Positions 3,587-19,360 of a DNA stretch of 20,000 bases are shown one piece after another. Each line of letters starts with the position of its first letter. Position 1 is the stretch's first letter. The notes under the pieces are model-generated. The model did no database searches. It was not told the origin of the DNA and was given only the letters and a program-made list of their open reading frames with translations. The position numbers were made by a program, and so were the translations under genes. Source of the stretch: an uncultured virus (IMG/VR IMGVR_UViG_3300043105_000059) (lineage: Duplodnaviria > Heunggongvirae > Uroviricota > Caudoviricetes); IMG/VR virus record IMGVR_UViG_3300043105_000059. One strand, 5' to 3'.

Positions 3587-3790
3587 TTACCAATCATAAC
3601 TTTTAATATTTTTATTTACTTTATGGTACTTAAAATTATGGTTAGCAATTATACATTCTAATAAATAATTTTCAACATCTCCATCTCTAAGATAAAAATT
3701 AATAATATTAAATATATAATCTTTATTTTTAGAGTTGAAATGTTGACCTGTAGAATGTATAAATTGATAAAAGAAATCTTCTGCCGTCAT
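3587..3790 (-). CDS. Hypothetical protein
   Basis: 67 aa; ATGA overlap with the dut stop codon. Confidence 0.65.
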   Translation of the reverse strand: MTAEDFFYQFIHSTGQHFNSKNKDYIFNIINFYLRDGDVENYLLECIIANHNFKYHKVNKNIKSYDW

Positions 3791-3975
3791 TTATCCCCAG
3801 TATGTCCGAAACCTCCAGCACCTCTTGTAGTTTCATCAAGTGAATTTACAGGAACCCACTGAATCTTAGAAACTTGCTCTAAAGTAATTTGAGCTATACG
3901 ATCTCCATGACGTACTACAAAATTATTATCAGGATCAGTATTTATTAAAATAACTCCAATTTCACCGCGATAATC
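3787..3975 (-). CDS. dut: dUTPase exon 2
   Basis: DYRGEIGVIL (motif 3, second half), GDRIAQ (motif 4), RGAGGFGHTG (motif 5); joins exon 1 in frame to give GCIDA|DYRGE, 172 aa spliced. Confidence 0.95.
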   Translation of the reverse strand, partial: DYRGEIGVILINTDPDNNFVVRHGDRIAQITLEQVSKIQWVPVNSLDETTRGAGGFGHTGDK

Positions 3976-4232
3976 CATTTATGTTATCCTAAAGACTCTT
4001 TATTCTTTAGTTCTGCAGTTTCATTAGTTATATCTGCAGGTCGGACTATATCTTCTCCAACAATATTTATAATTTGTTGGAGCAGGGCACTCGTGGTAGC
4101 ATTACTATCCTCGCTAAGGACTCGGCTACTAGTCTCTGAACCTTCAAGAGTATTACTACTCAAGCTTGGCTGCTGATTGTCCACCTCTGGAGTTTCCAGC
4201 AATTCACCCTGTTTTAAGACGCCAATTATCGC
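3976..4232 (-). ncRNA. Group I ribozyme catalytic core (IGS, P3-P9)
   Basis: Canonical P/Q/R/S elements, extra helices between P7 and P3' (GTAGC/GCTAC, TCCT/AGGA), P9 CTGCAG...CTGCAG and CTAAAGA...TCTTTAG, terminal G. Confidence 0.9.
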
Positions 4233-4973
4233 TTTATATTTTTCAGATCGTTCATGTGCTTTAGTATTATGGTATGTAGTATGTTCAGAACGTGTTAGTA
4301 TTTGAAGATTTTCTAAACGATTGTCTGTTTTTATTTCATTTATATGATGCACATCATATTCATCTTTTAGAACAATCCATCCATTAACATTCTCAAAATA
4401 CTTAGGATCAAACTTATCATGATTTCTTTCAATTACTAATCTATGCTGTCTAACTCTAGATCCTTGAACACTTTTATCACAGGGTTTTGGATGTCCTGGA
4501 CAATACTCTAACACGTAACCTAAATTAGAAATTGTTTCTTTACCCTTAAAACTTGCATTTTTATCACCAGTAAGTCCATATTGATGATTATTTTCTCCTA
4601 AATATGTAGTTTCTCTTAATTTGTTACTACATTCTTTACTACAACAAATTTGCGTTTTAACTTTTTTTATTCTACTAGGTTTCGCATAGAATTGGTTACC
4701 GCAAATAGGGCAAGTACAATTTAACTCAGTCTTTTTTCTAAATAAAGCTGAGCAAGTAGTGCTACAACATTGATAGGTCTTTGCACGACTCGGAGTAACG
4801 TATTCTATTTTACCACAATAAGCACATATTACTTCTATTTTATCTACAGCATTCTTTTCATTCGGTTTTCCTTTACTGTGTTCATCCGAACATTGTTTAC
4901 AACAATATTTTCGATGAGCACTTTTCTTTCCTAAGAAAGTTTTTCCACAATTTAAACAAATATATTCTACCAT
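3984..4973 (-). CDS. Intron-encoded HNH homing endonuclease with three N-terminal Cys-rich zinc-finger repeats
   Basis: CxxC...CCxxxC three times; VRQHRLVIE...DVHHINEIKTDNRLENL HNH motif; ATG at 4973 (MVEYIC) preferred over the TTG at 5006. Confidence 0.9.
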   Translation of the reverse strand: MVEYICLNCGKTFLGKKSAHRKYCCKQCSDEHSKGKPNEKNAVDKIEVICAYCGKIEYVTPSRAKTYQCCSTTCSALFRKKTELNCTCPICGNQFYAKPSRIKKVKTQICCSKECSNKLRETTYLGENNHQYGLTGDKNASFKGKETISNLGYVLEYCPGHPKPCDKSVQGSRVRQHRLVIERNHDKFDPKYFENVNGWIVLKDEYDVHHINEIKTDNRLENLQILTRSEHTTYHNTKAHERSEKYKAIIGVLKQGELLETPEVDNQQPSLSSNTLEGSETSSRVLSEDSNATTSALLQQIINIVGEDIVRPADITNETAELKNKESLG

Positions 4974-5067
4974 ACTAATTTTTTTAATATGGTTAAATAT
5001 AGACAATTTTATTGGAATAACCTAATAAAAATAATAAATTGTGTAGTAACTGTTAATATATAATTTT

Positions 5068-5397
5068 AGCGTCTATACAACCTGGCGTGTTAAGAACAGT
5101 TATACCGTGTTTAAGAGCTAATCCGCTACGAGGTCTTACTTTTATTTCATAACCTTCTGGAATTGCAACGAATAAACCAGTAGGAATAAGTGCTCTACCT
5201 CCGGGACGGATAACCACAGCACCACCTTCTGTATAAAATTGATTATCTAAGATACAATCAACTCCTTTAACATTAAGTATTCCATGAATATCTGCTCGCA
5301 CATCCATACCAGCAGAACCATCGGTTTCATAACTAGGAAGTGGATTATTCCATTGTTCATCATAATATTGCTTTTGCTTTACTTTTACTTCTACCAT
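5068..5397 (-). CDS. dut: dUTPase exon 1
   Basis: GSAGMDVRA (motif 1), LIPTGL, RPRSGLA (motif 2), NTPGCIDA (motif 3, first half); the unspliced frame stops 4 codons into the intron. Confidence 0.95.
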
Positions 5398-5402
5398 TTT
5401 AT

Positions 5403-5654
5403 TTAAGCATTAAAAGTCCATAAATACAAACCTAACCACACAAAAAGACACCCGATTAATACAGTTAGCACTTTAAAAGTTTGTACAAACCAAGACATCT
5501 CTTCTGGATTACGTTTTATATATTCCCAAATTTCCGGATATTTGTTGTCCGTATCTAATTTCGCTATATCATCAATACTCATGTTACATACATTAACAGT
5601 CATACGTACATACCAGAATATTATAAACAAACCTAAGATTCGTATAACTAACAT
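5403..5654 (-). CDS. Small membrane protein (two predicted TM helices)
   Basis: Hydrophobic stretches [11 protein letters not shown] and [18 protein letters not shown]. Confidence 0.7.
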
Positions 5655-8087: not shown

Positions 8088-9467
8088 CTATTGATAAATT
8101 AAAACATTCTTTTTAGTTCTAGATAAAGCTACATATTGAAGTTGCCTTCTTACAGCTTCATCATTACAACTATTTATATTACGAATATCTACAAATACAC
8201 TATCAAAGGTACTACCTTGGGATTTATGTGTACTTATAGCATAACTATAGTCAAAAGATTTCTTTCGGATTAATCTACCATCCACGTATAAATCAATTGG
8301 TGTAGTAAAGCTTCCCATCATTTCAAAATATTTTTTCCAATAATAGTTAGCTTTTTGCCTTTCACCTAGTTGTTTTAGTTGAATTGCTTGTTGTCTGTAA
8401 CCTTCAATTTTTAAAGATAAAGACTCAAGATAATCTTTAGAAATATCTTTAGATAAAATAGATATATTTTCACTACTTTTTGTTAATGAATCATAAAGTT
8501 CCATACTAATCCCAGGCAAAGAGCCAAAATTTGGAATATGAATTTCTGTTTTAAAAGGTTCATTTACAATAATATAATCCATAGAATTATAAAATTTGAA
8601 CCCATTAAACTCAAGATTCTCACAACCAATAAGGAATTCACCCTTATGATACTGACAATCTTTACCAAAGAATGCTTGGTGTATCGCTTGATTGTAAGCC
8701 TTAACTCTATCATTCGTATAACATAAAATCTTAGTACTTAATATATCTCCTTTTTTCATAGCTTTCGCTAATGCAATTTTTGCTTCTTTCAAAAATTCCT
8801 TCATATCAGACGTTACAAGAAGACTTCCTTCCTCTCCGATGCAATTATCAAAGTGCTTCATTGAATGCGTTCTGAGTGTCTGTAACACGTCAATAAAACC
8901 ATTTTTATCGGACTGTCTGTATATCTTTTGAAGTTCTACACAGGGTTGTGTATGAATAACTTTTGAAAGAAAATCTTGTTTTACAGGCTGTAATTGTGCA
9001 AAATCTCCAGTAAATATAATCTGTGATTCTTGTTCTTGCACTTGTGCAATTAAACAGGAATACAAATCATTATTTATCATCGAAGATTCATCACAAATCA
9101 CAATACCACGCTTAGGAATAGATGTAACATTACCACTACATTTAAACATAAGATTACGAAAATCAAGAGCAAAAATGTCGAGATTAGGAGAAAGCGAGAG
9201 TAATTTGTGCAATGTAACTGCTTCTCTTTCTGTATATCTTTCAAGCACCAATGCCGCTTTATGAGTTGGGGCACATAGTGCGTATTGAATACGATTGCGT
9301 TCACACCAATCAATTATATAATTTACTAATACACTTTTACCAGTACCAGCACTACCGTAGTAGAGACAGGCAGGTTCTTTATGATCATTAATAAATTTTA
9401 TGACCATATTAAGAGCCTTTTCCTGATCTTCTCCTAAGATAATGCTGGTATCATGTTTATTTATCAT
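8088..9467 (-). CDS. SF1B Dda/RecD-like DNA helicase
   Basis: Walker A GSAGTGKS, APTHKAA, TLHKLL, CDESSM (Walker B), GDFAQLQPV, IYRQ, YAISTHKSQGSTF, YVALSR. Confidence 0.93.
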   Translation of the reverse strand: MINKHDTSIILGEDQEKALNMVIKFINDHKEPACLYYGSAGTGKSVLVNYIIDWCERNRIQYALCAPTHKAALVLERYTEREAVTLHKLLSLSPNLDIFALDFRNLMFKCSGNVTSIPKRGIVICDESSMINNDLYSCLIAQVQEQESQIIFTGDFAQLQPVKQDFLSKVIHTQPCVELQKIYRQSDKNGFIDVLQTLRTHSMKHFDNCIGEEGSLLVTSDMKEFLKEAKIALAKAMKKGDILSTKILCYTNDRVKAYNQAIHQAFFGKDCQYHKGEFLIGCENLEFNGFKFYNSMDYIIVNEPFKTEIHIPNFGSLPGISMELYDSLTKSSENISILSKDISKDYLESLSLKIEGYRQQAIQLKQLGERQKANYYWKKYFEMMGSFTTPIDLYVDGRLIRKKSFDYSYAISTHKSQGSTFDSVFVDIRNINSCNDEAVRRQLQYVALSRTKKNVLIYQ

Positions 9468-11421: not shown

Positions 11422-11608
11422 AGTCGTGCTCTTCTACGTATTCTTTCATACCTTGTATAACAGTTTCTGACATAAAAGTTTGCCCTACTAACAAGCCATG
11501 TAAAGCTTCTAGTATATCAGTAACTGAACAATCTTCGTAAGCACTTTCCCATGAAAACTTATTACTACCTATTTCTAGTGTTAATTTAGTCTTTCTATCC
11601 TCGTTCAT
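11408..11608 (-). CDS. Hypothetical protein between nrdD and nrdG
   Basis: 66 aa; ATGA overlap with the nrdD stop and overlap with the nrdG start. Confidence 0.7.
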   Translation of the reverse strand: MNEDRKTKLTLEIGSNKFSWESAYEDCSVTDILEALHGLLVGQTFMSETVIQGMKEYVEEHDYELS

Positions 11609-14600
11609 AGTTCTTTTATATGTTTAACTCGTTGTTCGACCTCCTGTTGCTTACCAACGTTAAATGACGTCTTGTAGTCTCCGGTTAAATAACCTGTTAC
11701 ACGGCGTAATCGCTTGATATTTTTACTACCACACATAGGACAAGTATCATTCAATTCATCAATATAACCACAGTCTTGACAAGAATCATTTGGTACATTA
11801 ATGGCAAAGTATGGAATATCATGATCCATTGCATAATTAACAATCTCTTCAATAGCTTCTGGATTATGCTTAGTAGAAGCAGGTAATTCAACATAAGTTA
11901 TACAACCTGCACTACTGAAACCAGTAAGTTGTGATTCAATTTCAATTTTCTCAAATGGAGTACATTCATGCCATACAGGTACGTGCATACTATTAGTAAA
12001 GAAATCACGTTCTGTAATTCCTGGAACTTCACCAAATTGCTTCTTAAATTTCTGCATTGCTGTGTAACACAAATTTTCAGCAGGAGTATAATAAACACCA
12101 AAATTAAGTTTATAAGCTTCTTTGAATTCACTGCACCTCTTCTTAAAGAGAGCTTCTAATTCTTTAGCTTTATCCATAATTTCTGAATCAGTATGGTCTT
12201 TACCGAAAATAATTCTCAAAGCTTCTGATAATCCTAATTGACCAATAGCTAAAGTACCATGTTTTAATGCTGAACGAATACCTTCTTCAGGTTTATATCC
12301 ATACATTACATTATTTTGATACATAAACTTAGCTGATGCAGCATCTTGACTACATATCCAATCAAATCGTTCAATTAGCATATCTTTTGCTTCATGAATC
12401 TTAGTATCCAACAATTCAATAAATTTATTCCATACTAAATCCTTGATATTTATATCTGCATTATCCATATTAGATATAGCTTGCAGTTTAGAATTCATTG
12501 CAAGTGTAGGAAGTATGATTGTAACAGGACAGATATTACCTCTACCATCTTTAAGTTGACCAAAACCATTAATATCCCAGCCATTCGCTGTCCTGCATCC
12601 CATTGTACTAAAATAAGTGCGAGGATCGTTTATATCATACCCTTCATTACCAGACCAATCTACATTGGCATAATTAGGGTATAACCTAAGACTCGTAACC
12701 TTAGTAGCTTCTTGGAATATATCATAATTCGGATCTCCAGGTTTTCGATTAACACCTTTCATTAATTGAACGATACAGCACGGAAAAATCGGAGTGCTAT
12801 GATGGCTACCAATACCATTCTTACTTACTTCAAGTAAAGCTAGACTAATAAGACGTCCTTCAGGTTGTGTACAAGTACCATAATTAATAGAAGTGAATGG
12901 TAATTGATTACCACTTCTACTTTGTAAAGTATTTAAATTATGATACATACCTTCAACAGCTTGATGAATTTCTCGTTTAGTCATATCCAAAGCATATTCA
13001 TAAGAATTGGGATGCTCTTTATACAAACTATCCTCTATAGACAAATCTGTTTGATCATACTTCTCATTACGAATATGGTCAATATACTTCAATCCAGTTC
13101 TGTAGTGCTTATTAAAAGATAGTCTTACATAAGGAACCATAGTCCAATCTAGATGAGTTGCAGACACACCACCAAATTGTTGTAAACTTTGTACTTGGAA
13201 TATTACAGCTAATAATTGAAATGCTGTATTAACACTCTTAGCAGGTCTAACATCAGTTTGCTTTAGCTTAAACCCGTTAGTAAGTAAGTCGTCTACTGGT
13301 ATGCTCAAACAGTTTCCTGTTACCATACATCCAGCCAAAGTAAAACTGTGAGTTTCTGGAGCTTCAACACACCAAGTTACTTGTACAGATCCAGCCGTTA
13401 TTTTATCTAACCGCCATGGTTTATTTTCTTGCTGTTTAACACATAGTTGAAAATCATAATAAGTAACATCTTCTTTGTAATTAGTAGATTTTACATGCTC
13501 TCTTTTCGACCAAACATGAAACCCTGCAAGAGGTGCGGCAAATTCAATAAATTCTGCTAATCTACTATCAGTTGTAGAAATAGTATTATTTGCTTTACAC
13601 CCATCTGCTGAAAAATAGCCTAAGAAAATACTAGCAATAGCATTTTTATCTAGAATATTCCAAAATTTACCTTCAAGAAAATTTTGTTTATAAGATCCAT
13701 TACCTCTAGTATGAAGAGTAATATCTCCATTACTATGATGTTGTCGAATACTATAACCAGCTTTTAAGAAATTACCCAAGTATTCTACTTTATCGGAACA
13801 TAGTCTTACATTCATTCCACTGTTTGTAATTCTACTTTTATCTTTAGAATACATAAAGTAATCACAACCATCGCCTAATACAAATCCAAAACACCATAAA
13901 GTATTGTCTAATATAAAATCAGTTGTACTTACAGGCGTTAATATTAGTTTATCACCAACTTGTATATTATCAGTAATATCCCCATTACTTAAAATCCATC
14001 TATGATTTCTAGTACAGGTGACAGTTTTCTTAGTAATTCCAGCACTAAACTCTAAAGTGTACATTTTTTGTTTCTCATATTGATGTACCGTAGCAAATTC
14101 CCAATCTCCATTTTTATTTAGAATTTCTACAGGTTGACCGTCTGTAAAACTGTCAAAAGTTCTTACACCTCTAGAAGTTACAAACTTAGTATCATGGCTA
14201 TAACAGTTGTGCATCCCCACAGCGTAAGAATCCAAATCATGAATGTATATTTCATTATTTTCATGATTATGCTTAGCCATTTCAGACATACAATAATTAA
14301 GAGCATAATCTTTAGTTACAACTCTACCTGCTTCACCAATACGTCCACCAAATGAATGCTCGTCAATATTAGCATTTTGATTTTTTACATTAGAAGCTTC
14401 AAGTTTAGATTTAATGCCTTTAATGAGTTTATCTTTTTCAGCACGAAGCATCTTACGTTCTTCTCTATAAAGAATATAAGCTTTAGCTACATCTGGAAAA
14501 TCATAATCCATTAAAAGCTCTTCAACCTGATCTTGTATATCCTCAATATTAATCTCATCCCAAGTTTGTACTTCATTAGTTATTTCACTAATAACTTTAG

Positions 14601-14703
14601 AAGCATCTTCGTATCCACACTCTTTAAATGCTGCTGAAATCGCATTTATAATTTTACTCTTATCAAATTCAGCTAATGTACCGTCTCTTTTTGTTACTTT
14701 CAT
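11605..14703 (-). CDS. nrdD: Class III anaerobic ribonucleoside-triphosphate reductase with ATP cone, interrupted by an intein
   Basis: ATP cone VTKRDG..FDKSKI; IHDLD; MHN|CLSIP; QSRSGNQLPFTS; MGCRT; TPAENL; CxxC...CxxC; glycyl-radical motif RRVTGYL. Confidence 0.97.
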   Translation of the reverse strand: MKVTKRDGTLAEFDKSKIINAISAAFKECGYEDASKVISEITNEVQTWDEINIEDIQDQVEELLMDYDFPDVAKAYILYREERKMLRAEKDKLIKGIKSKLEASNVKNQNANIDEHSFGGRIGEAGRVVTKDYALNYCMSEMAKHNHENNEIYIHDLDSYAVGMHNCYSHDTKFVTSRGVRTFDSFTDGQPVEILNKNGDWEFATVHQYEKQKMYTLEFSAGITKKTVTCTRNHRWILSNGDITDNIQVGDKLILTPVSTTDFILDNTLWCFGFVLGDGCDYFMYSKDKSRITNSGMNVRLCSDKVEYLGNFLKAGYSIRQHHSNGDITLHTRGNGSYKQNFLEGKFWNILDKNAIASIFLGYFSADGCKANNTISTTDSRLAEFIEFAAPLAGFHVWSKREHVKSTNYKEDVTYYDFQLCVKQQENKPWRLDKITAGSVQVTWCVEAPETHSFTLAGCMVTGNCLSIPVDDLLTNGFKLKQTDVRPAKSVNTAFQLLAVIFQVQSLQQFGGVSATHLDWTMVPYVRLSFNKHYRTGLKYIDHIRNEKYDQTDLSIEDSLYKEHPNSYEYALDMTKREIHQAVEGMYHNLNTLQSRSGNQLPFTSINYGTCTQPEGRLISLALLEVSKNGIGSHHSTPIFPCCIVQLMKGVNRKPGDPNYDIFQEATKVTSLRLYPNYANVDWSGNEGYDINDPRTYFSTMGCRTANGWDINGFGQLKDGRGNICPVTIILPTLAMNSKLQAISNMDNADINIKDLVWNKFIELLDTKIHEAKDMLIERFDWICSQDAASAKFMYQNNVMYGYKPEEGIRSALKHGTLAIGQLGLSEALRIIFGKDHTDSEIMDKAKELEALFKKRCSEFKEAYKLNFGVYYTPAENLCYTAMQKFKKQFGEVPGITERDFFTNSMHVPVWHECTPFEKIEIESQLTGFSSAGCITYVELPASTKHNPEAIEEIVNYAMDHDIPYFAINVPNDSCQDCGYIDELNDTCPMCGSKNIKRLRRVTGYLTGDYKTSFNVGKQQEVEQRVKHIKEL
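13312..14205 (-). mobile_element. Intein (298 aa) with LAGLIDADG homing endonuclease domain in NrdD
   Basis: Starts CYSHDTKFV; block B TCTRNHRW; LAGLIDADG-like FGFVLGDG and FLGYFSADG; ends CMVTGN followed by C+1; removal restores GMHNCLSIP. Confidence 0.93.
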
Positions 14704-17991: not shown

Positions 17992-18330
17992 TTAAAATGG
18001 TAGCTGGTCACGAAGTAGTTTTGTAATTTGTGCAGGCATGTCTTTTGCTTTCATACCCAAGTCTGGAAACTTTTTACACCCATCAGAAAACCACTCACAA
18101 ACTAAAGAAAGAACCTCTATTAGATTGTCATCAATAGGTTCTCCCTTAGTACACATGCGAATCACTTCGTAATGTGTTATTCCAGGTTTTTTCTGCTTAA
18201 GAGCATTTGTAAGATAACAAATAGTACTAATAAGTCCTATTTTATCTCCTAAATCTTCAGAAGCAGGAATTCCAAAGAATAATTCATGTTTTAGGCGATA
18301 TTGCCAATCTTTATATCTATTCGTATCCAT
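17992..18330 (-). CDS. Hypothetical protein
   Basis: 112-aa ORF overlapping the exonuclease stop. Confidence 0.75.
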   Translation of the reverse strand: MDTNRYKDWQYRLKHELFFGIPASEDLGDKIGLISTICYLTNALKQKKPGITHYEVIRMCTKGEPIDDNLIEVLSLVCEWFSDGCKKFPDLGMKAKDMPAQITKLLRDQLPF

Positions 18331-19360
18331 AAGCTTTATACCAAGCGATTAATTTAAGTAACCAGATAAATTCAACTACCCCAGCTTTATACCAGTGCTT
18401 TTTCATAGAAACAACACTACTATTAAACTTGTCTGTAGTTTCAACTACTAAAAAATTACCACTAACAGAAGGATTTTTCAAATCATACTTATCAGCACCA
18501 AGCTGTAATAACCAAGTATAGAAAGCAATCTCTCTATAATAATGGAAATTCTTAACGGCATAATTAAATCCATCTAAAGGCTTTCCAGTAGTTTTAACAT
18601 CATTAATCACAATAGAATTATTTAATTGATCAATGGTGTAATTATCCAGTTTAGCTTTTAACTTCATAATGAAAGGTTCTACATCAGGTAGATTTACTTC
18701 TACATCTAATAGTATAGTAGTTTCATTATAGCTAGGAAGCTCATTATCTAGAATGTCTTTAGGATGTAACAATTTCTGTATAGCTTTATTAGCTTCTATA
18801 GAACTCATTACATTCTGCAATCTATCTAATGAATTAGCATCCAAATAAATTGGCTTACGAGTATCAGTAGAAGATTGCTCAAATTTAAACCTTTCTTTAA
18901 AATAAGGCTTGATAGTTGCTTTAACTTTGCTTAATTGATTTGCTGTTAAGAAACCATGATAATAATCAACTGTACTAGCAGCATCTCTAATTTTTTCATC
19001 GTCAGGCAATTCTCCAGTTTTACTTGCATATCCCCAAAGTAAATCAGCCATCATTCCTACCTTAGCGGAAGGAGCTTTAACGTCTTCACAAAGGAAAAAG
19101 GTGTCAGGTTGCAAGCTGAGTTCATGCACTGCCGAACCAAAAGCTAAACTAGATGAAAACTTGTTATGTTTTGATAGCCCTTCAAAGAAATCTTTAGGAC
19201 AACCTCCTTGCATTGGGTTAATTAAACCCATTCTTGAGTTACTAATGTAATCTGCATACTCTTTACCAAAATATACAGAATCATCAATATCAGTTATCTT
19301 TAAAGTTTCTACTAAAGGCTTAATAGTTACTTTAGATAACATTTGCTTATTTGGAATCAT
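18317..19360 (-). CDS. PD-(D/E)XK exonuclease (RecE/ExoVIII-like)
   Basis: YISNS, FGSAVH, E...KAKLD...INDVKTT, YYREIAFY motifs. Confidence 0.8.
   Translation of the reverse strand: MIPNKQMLSKVTIKPLVETLKITDIDDSVYFGKEYADYISNSRMGLINPMQGGCPKDFFEGLSKHNKFSSSLAFGSAVHELSLQPDTFFLCEDVKAPSAKVGMMADLLWGYASKTGELPDDEKIRDAASTVDYYHGFLTANQLSKVKATIKPYFKERFKFEQSSTDTRKPIYLDANSLDRLQNVMSSIEANKAIQKLLHPKDILDNELPSYNETTILLDVEVNLPDVEPFIMKLKAKLDNYTIDQLNNSIVINDVKTTGKPLDGFNYAVKNFHYYREIAFYTWLLQLGADKYDLKNPSVSGNFLVVETTDKFNSSVVSMKKHWYKAGVVEFIWLLKLIAWYKAYGYE

Follow-up and report, generated by a model that had tools for sequence, protein, structure and literature searches.

The window analysed here, a 20,000-nucleotide (nt) stretch inside the 62-kb virus record IMGVR_UViG_3300043105_000059, carries a dUTPase gene that is interrupted by a group I intron with an HNH endonuclease gene inside it. 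All genes of this locus that lie in the window are on the minus strand. Two open reading frames (ORFs) on that strand, 5397..5053 and 3978..3787, are the two halves of one dUTPase: exons 1 and 2 match adjoining stretches of a single Pfam PF00692 profile (positions 24–69, then 71–129), and joining position 5068 to position 3975 gives an uninterrupted dUTPase frame in which the catalytic motif, split between IDA and DYRGE, is restored as IDADYRGE. The parts of the split gene are as follows.

5068..5397, minus strand: dUTPase exon 1, 110 codons (ORF list; Pfam PF00692 profile positions 24–69; joint at 5068 in RNA-library contigs)
3976..5067, minus strand: group I intron, 1092 nt, with its terminal G (omega G) at 3976 (Rfam; contig skip; core covariation)
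5053..5055, minus strand: in-frame UAA ending the exon-1 frame, 4 codons past the 5′ splice site (sequence; end of ORF 5053..5397)
3984..4973, minus strand: HNH homing-endonuclease ORF, 329 amino acids (aa) plus stop (translation; Pfam HNH_3, E = 2.9e-8)
3787..3975, minus strand: dUTPase exon 2 (Pfam dUTPase profile positions 71–129, E = 8.9e-13; joint at 3975 in RNA-library contigs)

The intron gives the only Rfam RF00028 match in the 62-kb record (70.3 bits, gathering score 50; E = 2.6e-16; model positions 1–253), over 4298–4013, and its terminal G is invariant in an alignment of 19 sequences. The UAA at 5055–5053 stops exon-1 translation ahead of the ORF in the loop; an in-frame stop soon after the 5′ splice site is described as common in bacterial group I introns in the available part of PMC3984707. 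The ORF product scores 33.6 bits against Pfam HNH_3 (cut-off 24.8) over aa 202–231 (4370–4281), has Cys-rich repeats at its N terminus, and keeps H209, H210, N218, N222, H231 and H235 invariant in 13 relatives.

We put a probability of about 0.9 on the following reading: a mobile group I intron within the dUTPase gene uses a 7-base-pair (bp) P1 that closes across an 835-nt loop carrying the HNH gene, and the HNH gene reads through the catalytic core. The elements of the RNA on which this reading turns are listed here.

5074–5068, minus strand: last 7 nt of exon 1, serving as the 5′ strand of P1, with the splice-site U at 5068
4233..5067, minus strand: P1 loop region, 835 nt from the 5′ splice site to the guide (94-nt leader plus codons 1–247 of the HNH ORF)
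4224..4232, minus strand: P10 guide (internal guide sequence, 5′ part), partner of exon 2 nt 1–9
4217..4223, minus strand: P1 guide (internal guide sequence, 3′ part), with G4223 opposite U5068
3975–3967, minus strand: first 9 nt of exon 2, forming the 3′-exon strand of P10 (pairing with the guide)
4212..4216, minus strand: J1/3 (UAAAA), from the alignment; P2 absent
4044..4211, minus strand: catalytic core (Rfam alignment; RNAalifold; pair counts)

The sequence-only reading had proposed a 16-nt guide at minus-strand 4232–4217, pairing with the ligated exons through 14 Watson–Crick and 2 G–U pairs as a 7-bp P1 and a 9-bp P10. We recomputed the pairing and the coordinates agree: all 16 of 16 guide positions pair with 5074–5068 plus 3975–3967, with U5068–G4223 at the splice site and the exon end AGACGCU facing the P1 guide GGCGUCU. 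The distance of about 835 nt between guide and 5′ splice site also holds, the count from 5067 (first intron nt) through 4233 (last nt ahead of the guide) being 835. The second-best 16-mer in the intron pairs at only 12 of 16 positions. With each intron G tried in turn opposite the splice-site U, the runner-up helix to the 5′ exon had 4 bp, and the AT-rich first 100 nt of the intron held no usable alternative guide; another guide near the 5′ splice site, the finding that the sequence-only reading had named as counting against itself, was thus absent above 4 bp. Among 5000 dinucleotide-preserving shuffles of the intron, a combined P1 plus P10 of at least 16 pairs arose in 1.

The guide lies 5 nt (UAAAA) before the 5′ strand of P3, which leaves no space for P2. 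The 16-nt P3–P4 motif of the window is present in more than 117 viral contigs, and many of these (for example, at loci L018 and L037; L-numbers denote viral-contig loci throughout) have a short P1 hairpin directly before (U)AAAA-P3, so that the guide of the window stands at the canonical place for this type of intron. What is distant is only the exon partner of the guide; the position of the guide itself is canonical.

Relatives allow the pairing to be examined by covariation. We assembled 24 introns at the same dUTPase site, including that of the phage cr1_1 and a more diverged pair, L216 and L236; the search for P1 and P10 fixed the position of the guide and required the dUTPase motif, and the splice sites of L125 and L152 were set by hand. 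This search replaced an earlier automatic one over 117 loci, which was noisy, returned G–U-rich false helices and mis-picked L125, L152 and L156. All 24 introns form a helix of 6–7 bp between the last exon nucleotides and the 7 nt lying 5 nt before P3, and the 24 loci reduce to 12 distinct combinations of exon and guide. The splice-site U–G is present in 12 of 12 combinations. At position −2 of P1 the pair is C–G in 10, A–U in 1 and G–C in 1; at −3 it is G–C in 5, U–A in 5 and G–U in 2; and at −7 it is A–U in 5, U–A in 2, C–G in 1 and U–G in 1, the remaining 3 being unpaired. Overall, 96.4% of P1 cells are paired, a value that 0 of 10000 shuffles attain; random assignment of guides gives 81.4%. 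The significance of this comparison is overstated because the sequences share ancestry and are not independent. The occurrence of several compensatory pair types is a stronger argument than the shuffle figures.

The second half of the guide behaves in a similar way over its first pairs. RNAalifold, given the 19-sequence alignment, finds the first five P10 pairs unaided, and these are formed in 89–100% of the 19 sequences. Pair 2 (alignment pair 13–309) is G–C in 12, A–U in 6 and G–U in 1 of the 19, and the first pair is G–U in 17 of 19.

The core helices downstream of the guide are placed as follows.

4211–4205/4089–4083, minus strand: P3
4201–4196/4176–4171, minus strand: P4
4191–4188/4183–4180, minus strand: P5
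4170–4168/4142–4140, minus strand: P6
4161–4157/4152–4148, minus strand: P6a
4134–4130/4048–4044, minus strand: P7
4128–4125/4100–4097, minus strand: P7.1
4121–4118/4110–4107, minus strand: P7.2
4082–4074/4063–4055, minus strand: P8
4039–4034/4018–4013, minus strand: P9 (the P9 plus P9.1 region is 3989..4039)
4010–4004/3995–3989, minus strand: P9.1

The presence of P7.1 and P7.2 and the absence of P2 mark this mobile group I intron as one of the subgroup-IA type. For a hand-written structure of 64 pairs, counted over the 19-sequence alignment that spans guide to 3′ exon, pairing is intact in 91.3% of cells; 34 of the 64 pairs have changed on both sides, and 0 of 500 shuffles score as high; controls with slid partners give 32–42%. 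P9.1 is paired in 100% of cells with 7 of 7 pairs changed on both sides, P9 is paired in 69% (some alignment rows are out of register owing to its variable loop), and P3, P4, P6 and P7 never vary on both sides and are uninformative on covariation.

Versions of the intron without the ORF, a search for which the sequence-only reading had suggested in related phages, do exist. The distance from 5′ splice site to guide is 12 nt in L140, 45 nt in L148 and 51 nt in L216, all ORF-less, and 147 nt in L128 and 194 nt in L162, which retain remnants of the ORF; in the remaining 19 loci it is 496–845 nt, and among these L120 has only a shortened ORF of 129 aa. The minimum free energy fold of the 251-nt L140 intron is a compact P1 hairpin followed by P3–P9.1. 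In three pairs of short and long forms (L128/L154, L148/L156 and L140/L156), the short form is what remains of the long one after loss of an internal part of the loop: it keeps the first 3–27 nt of the intron and everything from the guide onward. Because L148 and L216 still hold the last codons of the ORF before the guide, the ORF-less forms are deletion derivatives and not ancestors that predate an invasion. The dUTPase frame is open across the junction in every ORF-less and remnant form. Canonical position, covariation, ORF-less relatives and the lack of another guide together bear out the proposal that the guide is functional and that P1 closes over a loop of about 835 nt bearing the HNH gene.

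Evidence for the joined exons comes from RNA libraries. We aligned the contigs of four metatranscriptome-type runs (X1–X4) to positions 3700–5500. In three of the four, X1, X2 and X3, which come from three studies, one contig each joins 3975 to 5068 and skips exactly 1092 nt, and the joined contigs are otherwise identical to the exons of the window at every base. X4 has no joint, and its exon cover is so thin that it is uninformative; gaps in contig cover elsewhere in the stretch likewise carry no weight. Intron sequence is also present in X1, X2 and X3, and X1 additionally holds contigs that cross both intron–exon junctions unspliced. The joints are what splicing predicts, subject to the caveat on DNA in RNA libraries given below; the intron probably self-splices, and P1 would form across the 835-nt loop during folding.

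The placement of most of the HNH ORF in that loop, as the sequence-only reading had it, is right for codons 1–247; the ORF as a whole extends beyond the loop and reads on through the guide and the core. Codons 248–253 are the guide; the frame continues through P3–P9.1 and stops 8 nt before the 3′ splice site, so that residues 248–329, the last 82 codons, are encoded by the guide and the ribozyme core. The same holds across the family, L001 and L252 included: in 15 of 15 members with an ORF of at least 200 aa, the ORF uses this frame through the guide and stops 33–237 nt past the guide G, and the other two frames stop within 1–17 nt in most sequences. We considered the open frame as proof of a selected protein tail and rejected it, given that the ORF-less relatives keep the same frame open for 105–219 nt and that the tail is predicted to be disordered. 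Since those relatives keep it open, the openness belongs to the conserved RNA sequence. From an alignment of 13 sequences, AlphaFold2 returns predicted local distance difference test (pLDDT) values of 71–95 for residue blocks 141–240 and below 50 for residues 239–329. In a tblastn search against named phages, the alignments of 26 records outside the crAss-like phages end at aa 235–259, and those of six crAss-like records run on to residues 297–329. The 82-residue tail is most likely an unstructured by-product, judging from these predictions.

We propose that the 5′ splice site would be chosen by the 7-bp P1, in which exon nucleotides 5074–5068 pair with guide nucleotides 4223–4217 and the U5068–G4223 wobble marks the cut. 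After the first step, the adjoining guide at 4232–4224 would hold the 3′ exon in the 9-bp P10, and G3976 would serve as the terminal guanosine. The two strands of P1 would lie 835 nt apart because the P1 loop carries the HNH gene, which starts at 4973; with no stop before the guide, this gene would be read through the guide and the whole catalytic core. A ribosome on the endonuclease gene would have to unwind P1, P10 and the core, so that a single RNA molecule could either be spliced or serve for endonuclease synthesis, not both. Expression of ORFs that extend into the core is reported to be tightly controlled in the accessible text of PMC3984707. The protein itself would be a homing nuclease for the intron-less dUTPase allele. 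The site is polymorphic: ORF-plus and ORF-less versions of the intron both exist, and 76 of 80 viral-contig loci that encode relatives of exon 1 are uninterrupted between IDA and DYRGE. The P1 loop may simply be an insertion-tolerant loop of a compact scaffold.

Several points weigh against this reading or narrow it, beyond the shared ancestry that inflates the shuffle figures and the unpaired −7 position of P1 in 3 of 12 combinations. A P1 of at least 7 bp alone appears in 446 of 5000 intron shuffles; the 7-bp P1 by itself is unremarkable, and it is the combined 16 bp that is remarkable. P10 pairs 7–9 are formed in just 3 to 7 of the 19 sequences, and the 9-bp P10 is a peculiarity of the lineage of the window. 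Contigs from RNA libraries may include DNA, in which case the joint could reflect a co-occurring intron-less allele with identical exons. The openness of the frame is equally no evidence that the protein tail is useless. Finally, Rfam at E ≤ 0.01 misses the homologous intron of cr1_1.

That intron (L001) goes undetected at this threshold although it shares 85% identity with the window over 148 nt of the core. Scans with covariance models will accordingly undercount the crAss-like dUTPase intron family, and we used sequence motifs in place of Rfam to gather relatives.

How the HNH gene came to lie in the loop is a separate matter, and the sequence-only reading had offered an answer: that the endonuclease gene may have invaded the intron at a look-alike of its target, and that two mismatches may protect the intron from self-cleavage. 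More fully, the endonuclease or a free-standing ancestor would have cut the look-alike at the guide, and the gene would have been copied in during repair. The letters do agree, the guide DNA being a 14/16 inverted copy of the intron-less insertion site, and the ORF lies immediately 5′ of the guide. The published ‘endonuclease-gene invasion’ model also rests on such a resemblance, for T4 sunY, in the part of PMC3984707 that is available. Yet a 14/16 look-alike of the homing site follows automatically from contiguous P1 and P10 guides and is expected in any group I intron in which the two adjoin. Both mismatches are G–U pairs, conserved as such in the combinations (splice site) and sequences (first P10 pair) counted above, and are explained by the function of the RNA. 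In relatives the look-alike is shorter, with a P10 of 4–7 bp and pairs 7–9 formed in a minority only. The ORF, moreover, does not split the look-alike, which lies wholly on its 3′ side, inside the ORF, and is read through; the fused flanks of the ORF do not resemble the homing site, and natural deletions of the ORF leave the look-alike unchanged. All dUTPase introns have homologous HNH genes and cores, with 35–59% identity, so one old invasion would be enough, and the guide at that time need not have equalled that of today. No pre-invasion intron was seen among the ORF-less forms, which keep the last ORF codons. We therefore consider this origin improbable, and protection by the two mismatches finds no support in the pattern of the G–U pairs.

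Three families of endonuclease occupy the same spot, which fits a permissive loop better than invasion at a look-alike, although it could also mean repeated attraction. P2-less introns with the P3–P4–P6 motif of the window in other phage genes carry LAGLIDADG genes in L123, L019, L024 and L158, and GIY-YIG genes at the same place in L135, L161 and L005. Among the host genes are DNA polymerase A (in L019), AAA ATPases and a UDG-like gene. The endonuclease ORFs themselves are found directly upstream of the guide, where P1 assignments are automatic predictions only, and end 3 nt before P3 (L158) or run up to 233 nt into the core. HNH, LAGLIDADG and GIY-YIG enzymes cut at different distances from their sites, and for that reason the common position of their genes points to a permissive loop. 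A more ambitious version, in which the guide is a landing pad that repeatedly draws genes of all three families into the P1 loop and read-through makes endonuclease synthesis and splicing exclusive, seems to us doubtful.

Less probable still is that the intron no longer splices, that the dUTPase is dead, and that the joined contigs come from DNA of an intron-less phage in the same samples. RNA libraries can carry DNA, the contigs show neither strand nor level, and intron-less alleles are common in general, as the 76 of 80 uninterrupted relatives attest. Against this, both exons keep an intact dUTPase frame and their Pfam matches, no core helix is broken, and the guide pairs with the exons at every position. 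In three runs from three studies that also contain the intron, every base of the joined contigs agrees with the exons of the window. Among the 80 loci, no intron-less relative is more than 60% identical to exon 1. We regard a dead intron as very unlikely.

Another candidate layout has P1 formed by some other guide closer to the 5′ splice site, with 4232–4217 serving only as P10 or pairing fortuitously and the ORF lying in a P2-like extension. It draws on two points: the guides of most group I introns described so far stand no more than a few tens of nt from the 5′ splice site, and the Rfam alignment forces a ‘P1’ at about 4294–4254. This idea is already close to refuted: the forced P1 excludes the exon and has non-canonical pairs, G4223 is the one G in the intron that pairs with the 5′ exon over more than 4 contiguous bp, exon and guide covary in 12 combinations, and in the ORF-less relatives this same guide forms part of a compact hairpin.

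The four interrupted loci among the 80 are two twins of the window together with L216 and L236. Exon 1 of every intron-bearing allele ends GAC-NNU, as the U–G pair requires; in the intron-less alleles (76 listed, loci L174–L251) the Asp codon is mostly GAU and the next codon ends in A, C, G or U, a pattern that may bear on which alleles an intron can invade. Two further viral contigs, of 34.9 kb and 109.4 kb, have an intron region identical to that of the window (they are among L137, L149, L172, L173, L083 and L115) and may be the same phage assembled from other samples.

A sister lineage of introns (L134, L009, L124, L163, L167 and L138) has a homologous core and HNH gene and is inserted 7 nt upstream in the same dUTPase motif (...ACGAU/A GAC GCA..., in which the slash marks the insertion point). 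It has its own covarying P1 and P10 in the same layout. Its P1 guide is new (GUCGUG and variants), and the letters GCGUC of the P1 guide in the lineage of the window pair there with the 3′ exon as P10. It looks as if a changed guide moved the insertion site.

The minus-strand neighbours of the locus (101–2986, 8088–9467, 11605–14703 and 18317–19360) form a block for replication and nucleotide metabolism, with an RNA-ligase-like protein, an ATP-dependent DNA ligase, an SF1 helicase, a PDDEXK-like protein and an anaerobic ribonucleotide reductase with an ATP cone (1032 aa). CheckV estimates the completeness of the 62-kb record at 34%, which suggests a large phage genome. A megablast search of the region against named phages returned a sole match, 148 nt of cr1_1, and no closer named relative; the nearest named relatives of the source, a gut phage, are crAss-like phages.

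An endonuclease gene between the 5′ splice site and the guide is an uncommon layout of a known kind. The gene for I-PpoI in Physarum Ppo.L1925 is an example of an endonuclease gene in P1. In nuclear ribosomal DNA (rDNA) introns, according to the accessible portion of PMC3679873, endonuclease genes sit in P1, P2, P6, P8 or P9. Such introns resemble that of the window in having the gene in a peripheral extension of P1, but they lie in eukaryotic ribosomal RNA and encode His-Cys box enzymes, whereas the window has a phage protein gene and an HNH enzyme. In literature searches thin on subscription journals, we found no paper placing a phage endonuclease gene in P1; the matches concerned P10, fungal mitochondria and nuclear introns.

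For endonuclease-gene invasion in T4 sunY (I-TevII; Loizos, Tillier and Belfort 1994, PMC45360), the available sections of PMC3984707 describe intron sequence beside the ORF that resembles the targeted exon junction; there it takes both ORF flanks jointly to produce the resemblance, and these flanks, once fused, were shown to be cleaved. In the window, by contrast, the look-alike is an intact guide on one side of the ORF, known from sequence alone. The same sections describe bacterial and phage group I introns with an ORF that extends into the core. The intron of the window is like them in this overlap and in the in-frame stop soon after the 5′ splice site, and its overlap takes in the guide and nearly all of the core, from P3 to P9.1, a trait common to the entire dUTPase-intron family; we found no description of an overlap this extensive in a comparison made with the review.

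The closest known system is the reference crAssphage (Carjivirus communis, BK010471), in which gp34 is annotated as a dUTPase that ‘contains intron insertion’ and gp35 as a ‘putative intron-encoded HNH endonuclease’; the split gene is mentioned in the accessible part of PMC7551546. Records of this group annotate the split gene and do not give the RNA structure, and we found no paper on the RNA structure of the crAss-like dUTPase intron in a literature search that was thin on subscription journals. Our analysis leaves the understanding of how group I introns work unchanged. It yields a checked RNA-level model (splice sites, guide, helices and position of the ORF) for the intron of the reference crAssphage and many relatives, in genomes that so far annotate it as a split gene only. 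It also gives annotators a rule for joining the exons: the guide lies 5 nt before P3, and its exon partner may be up to about 850 nt upstream. Pairs of ORF-plus and ORF-less introns, together with a guide that is coding, are convenient material for the study of interference between splicing and translation.

As in the window, the intron of crAssphage, cr1_1 (MT774380) and cr50_1 interrupts the same gene at the same point, after the codon following the ID of motif III. The group shares with the window a homologous HNH protein (40.5% identity over aa 46–329), the same core motif, a guide 5 nt before P3 and an ORF that runs through the guide into the core. The letters differ, with exon AGACUAU and guide GUAGUCU in crAssphage compared with AGACGCU and GGCGUCU in the window; P10 has 4–5 bp instead of 9; and the crAssphage ORF ends in J8/7, whereas that of the window continues to 8 nt before the 3′ splice site.

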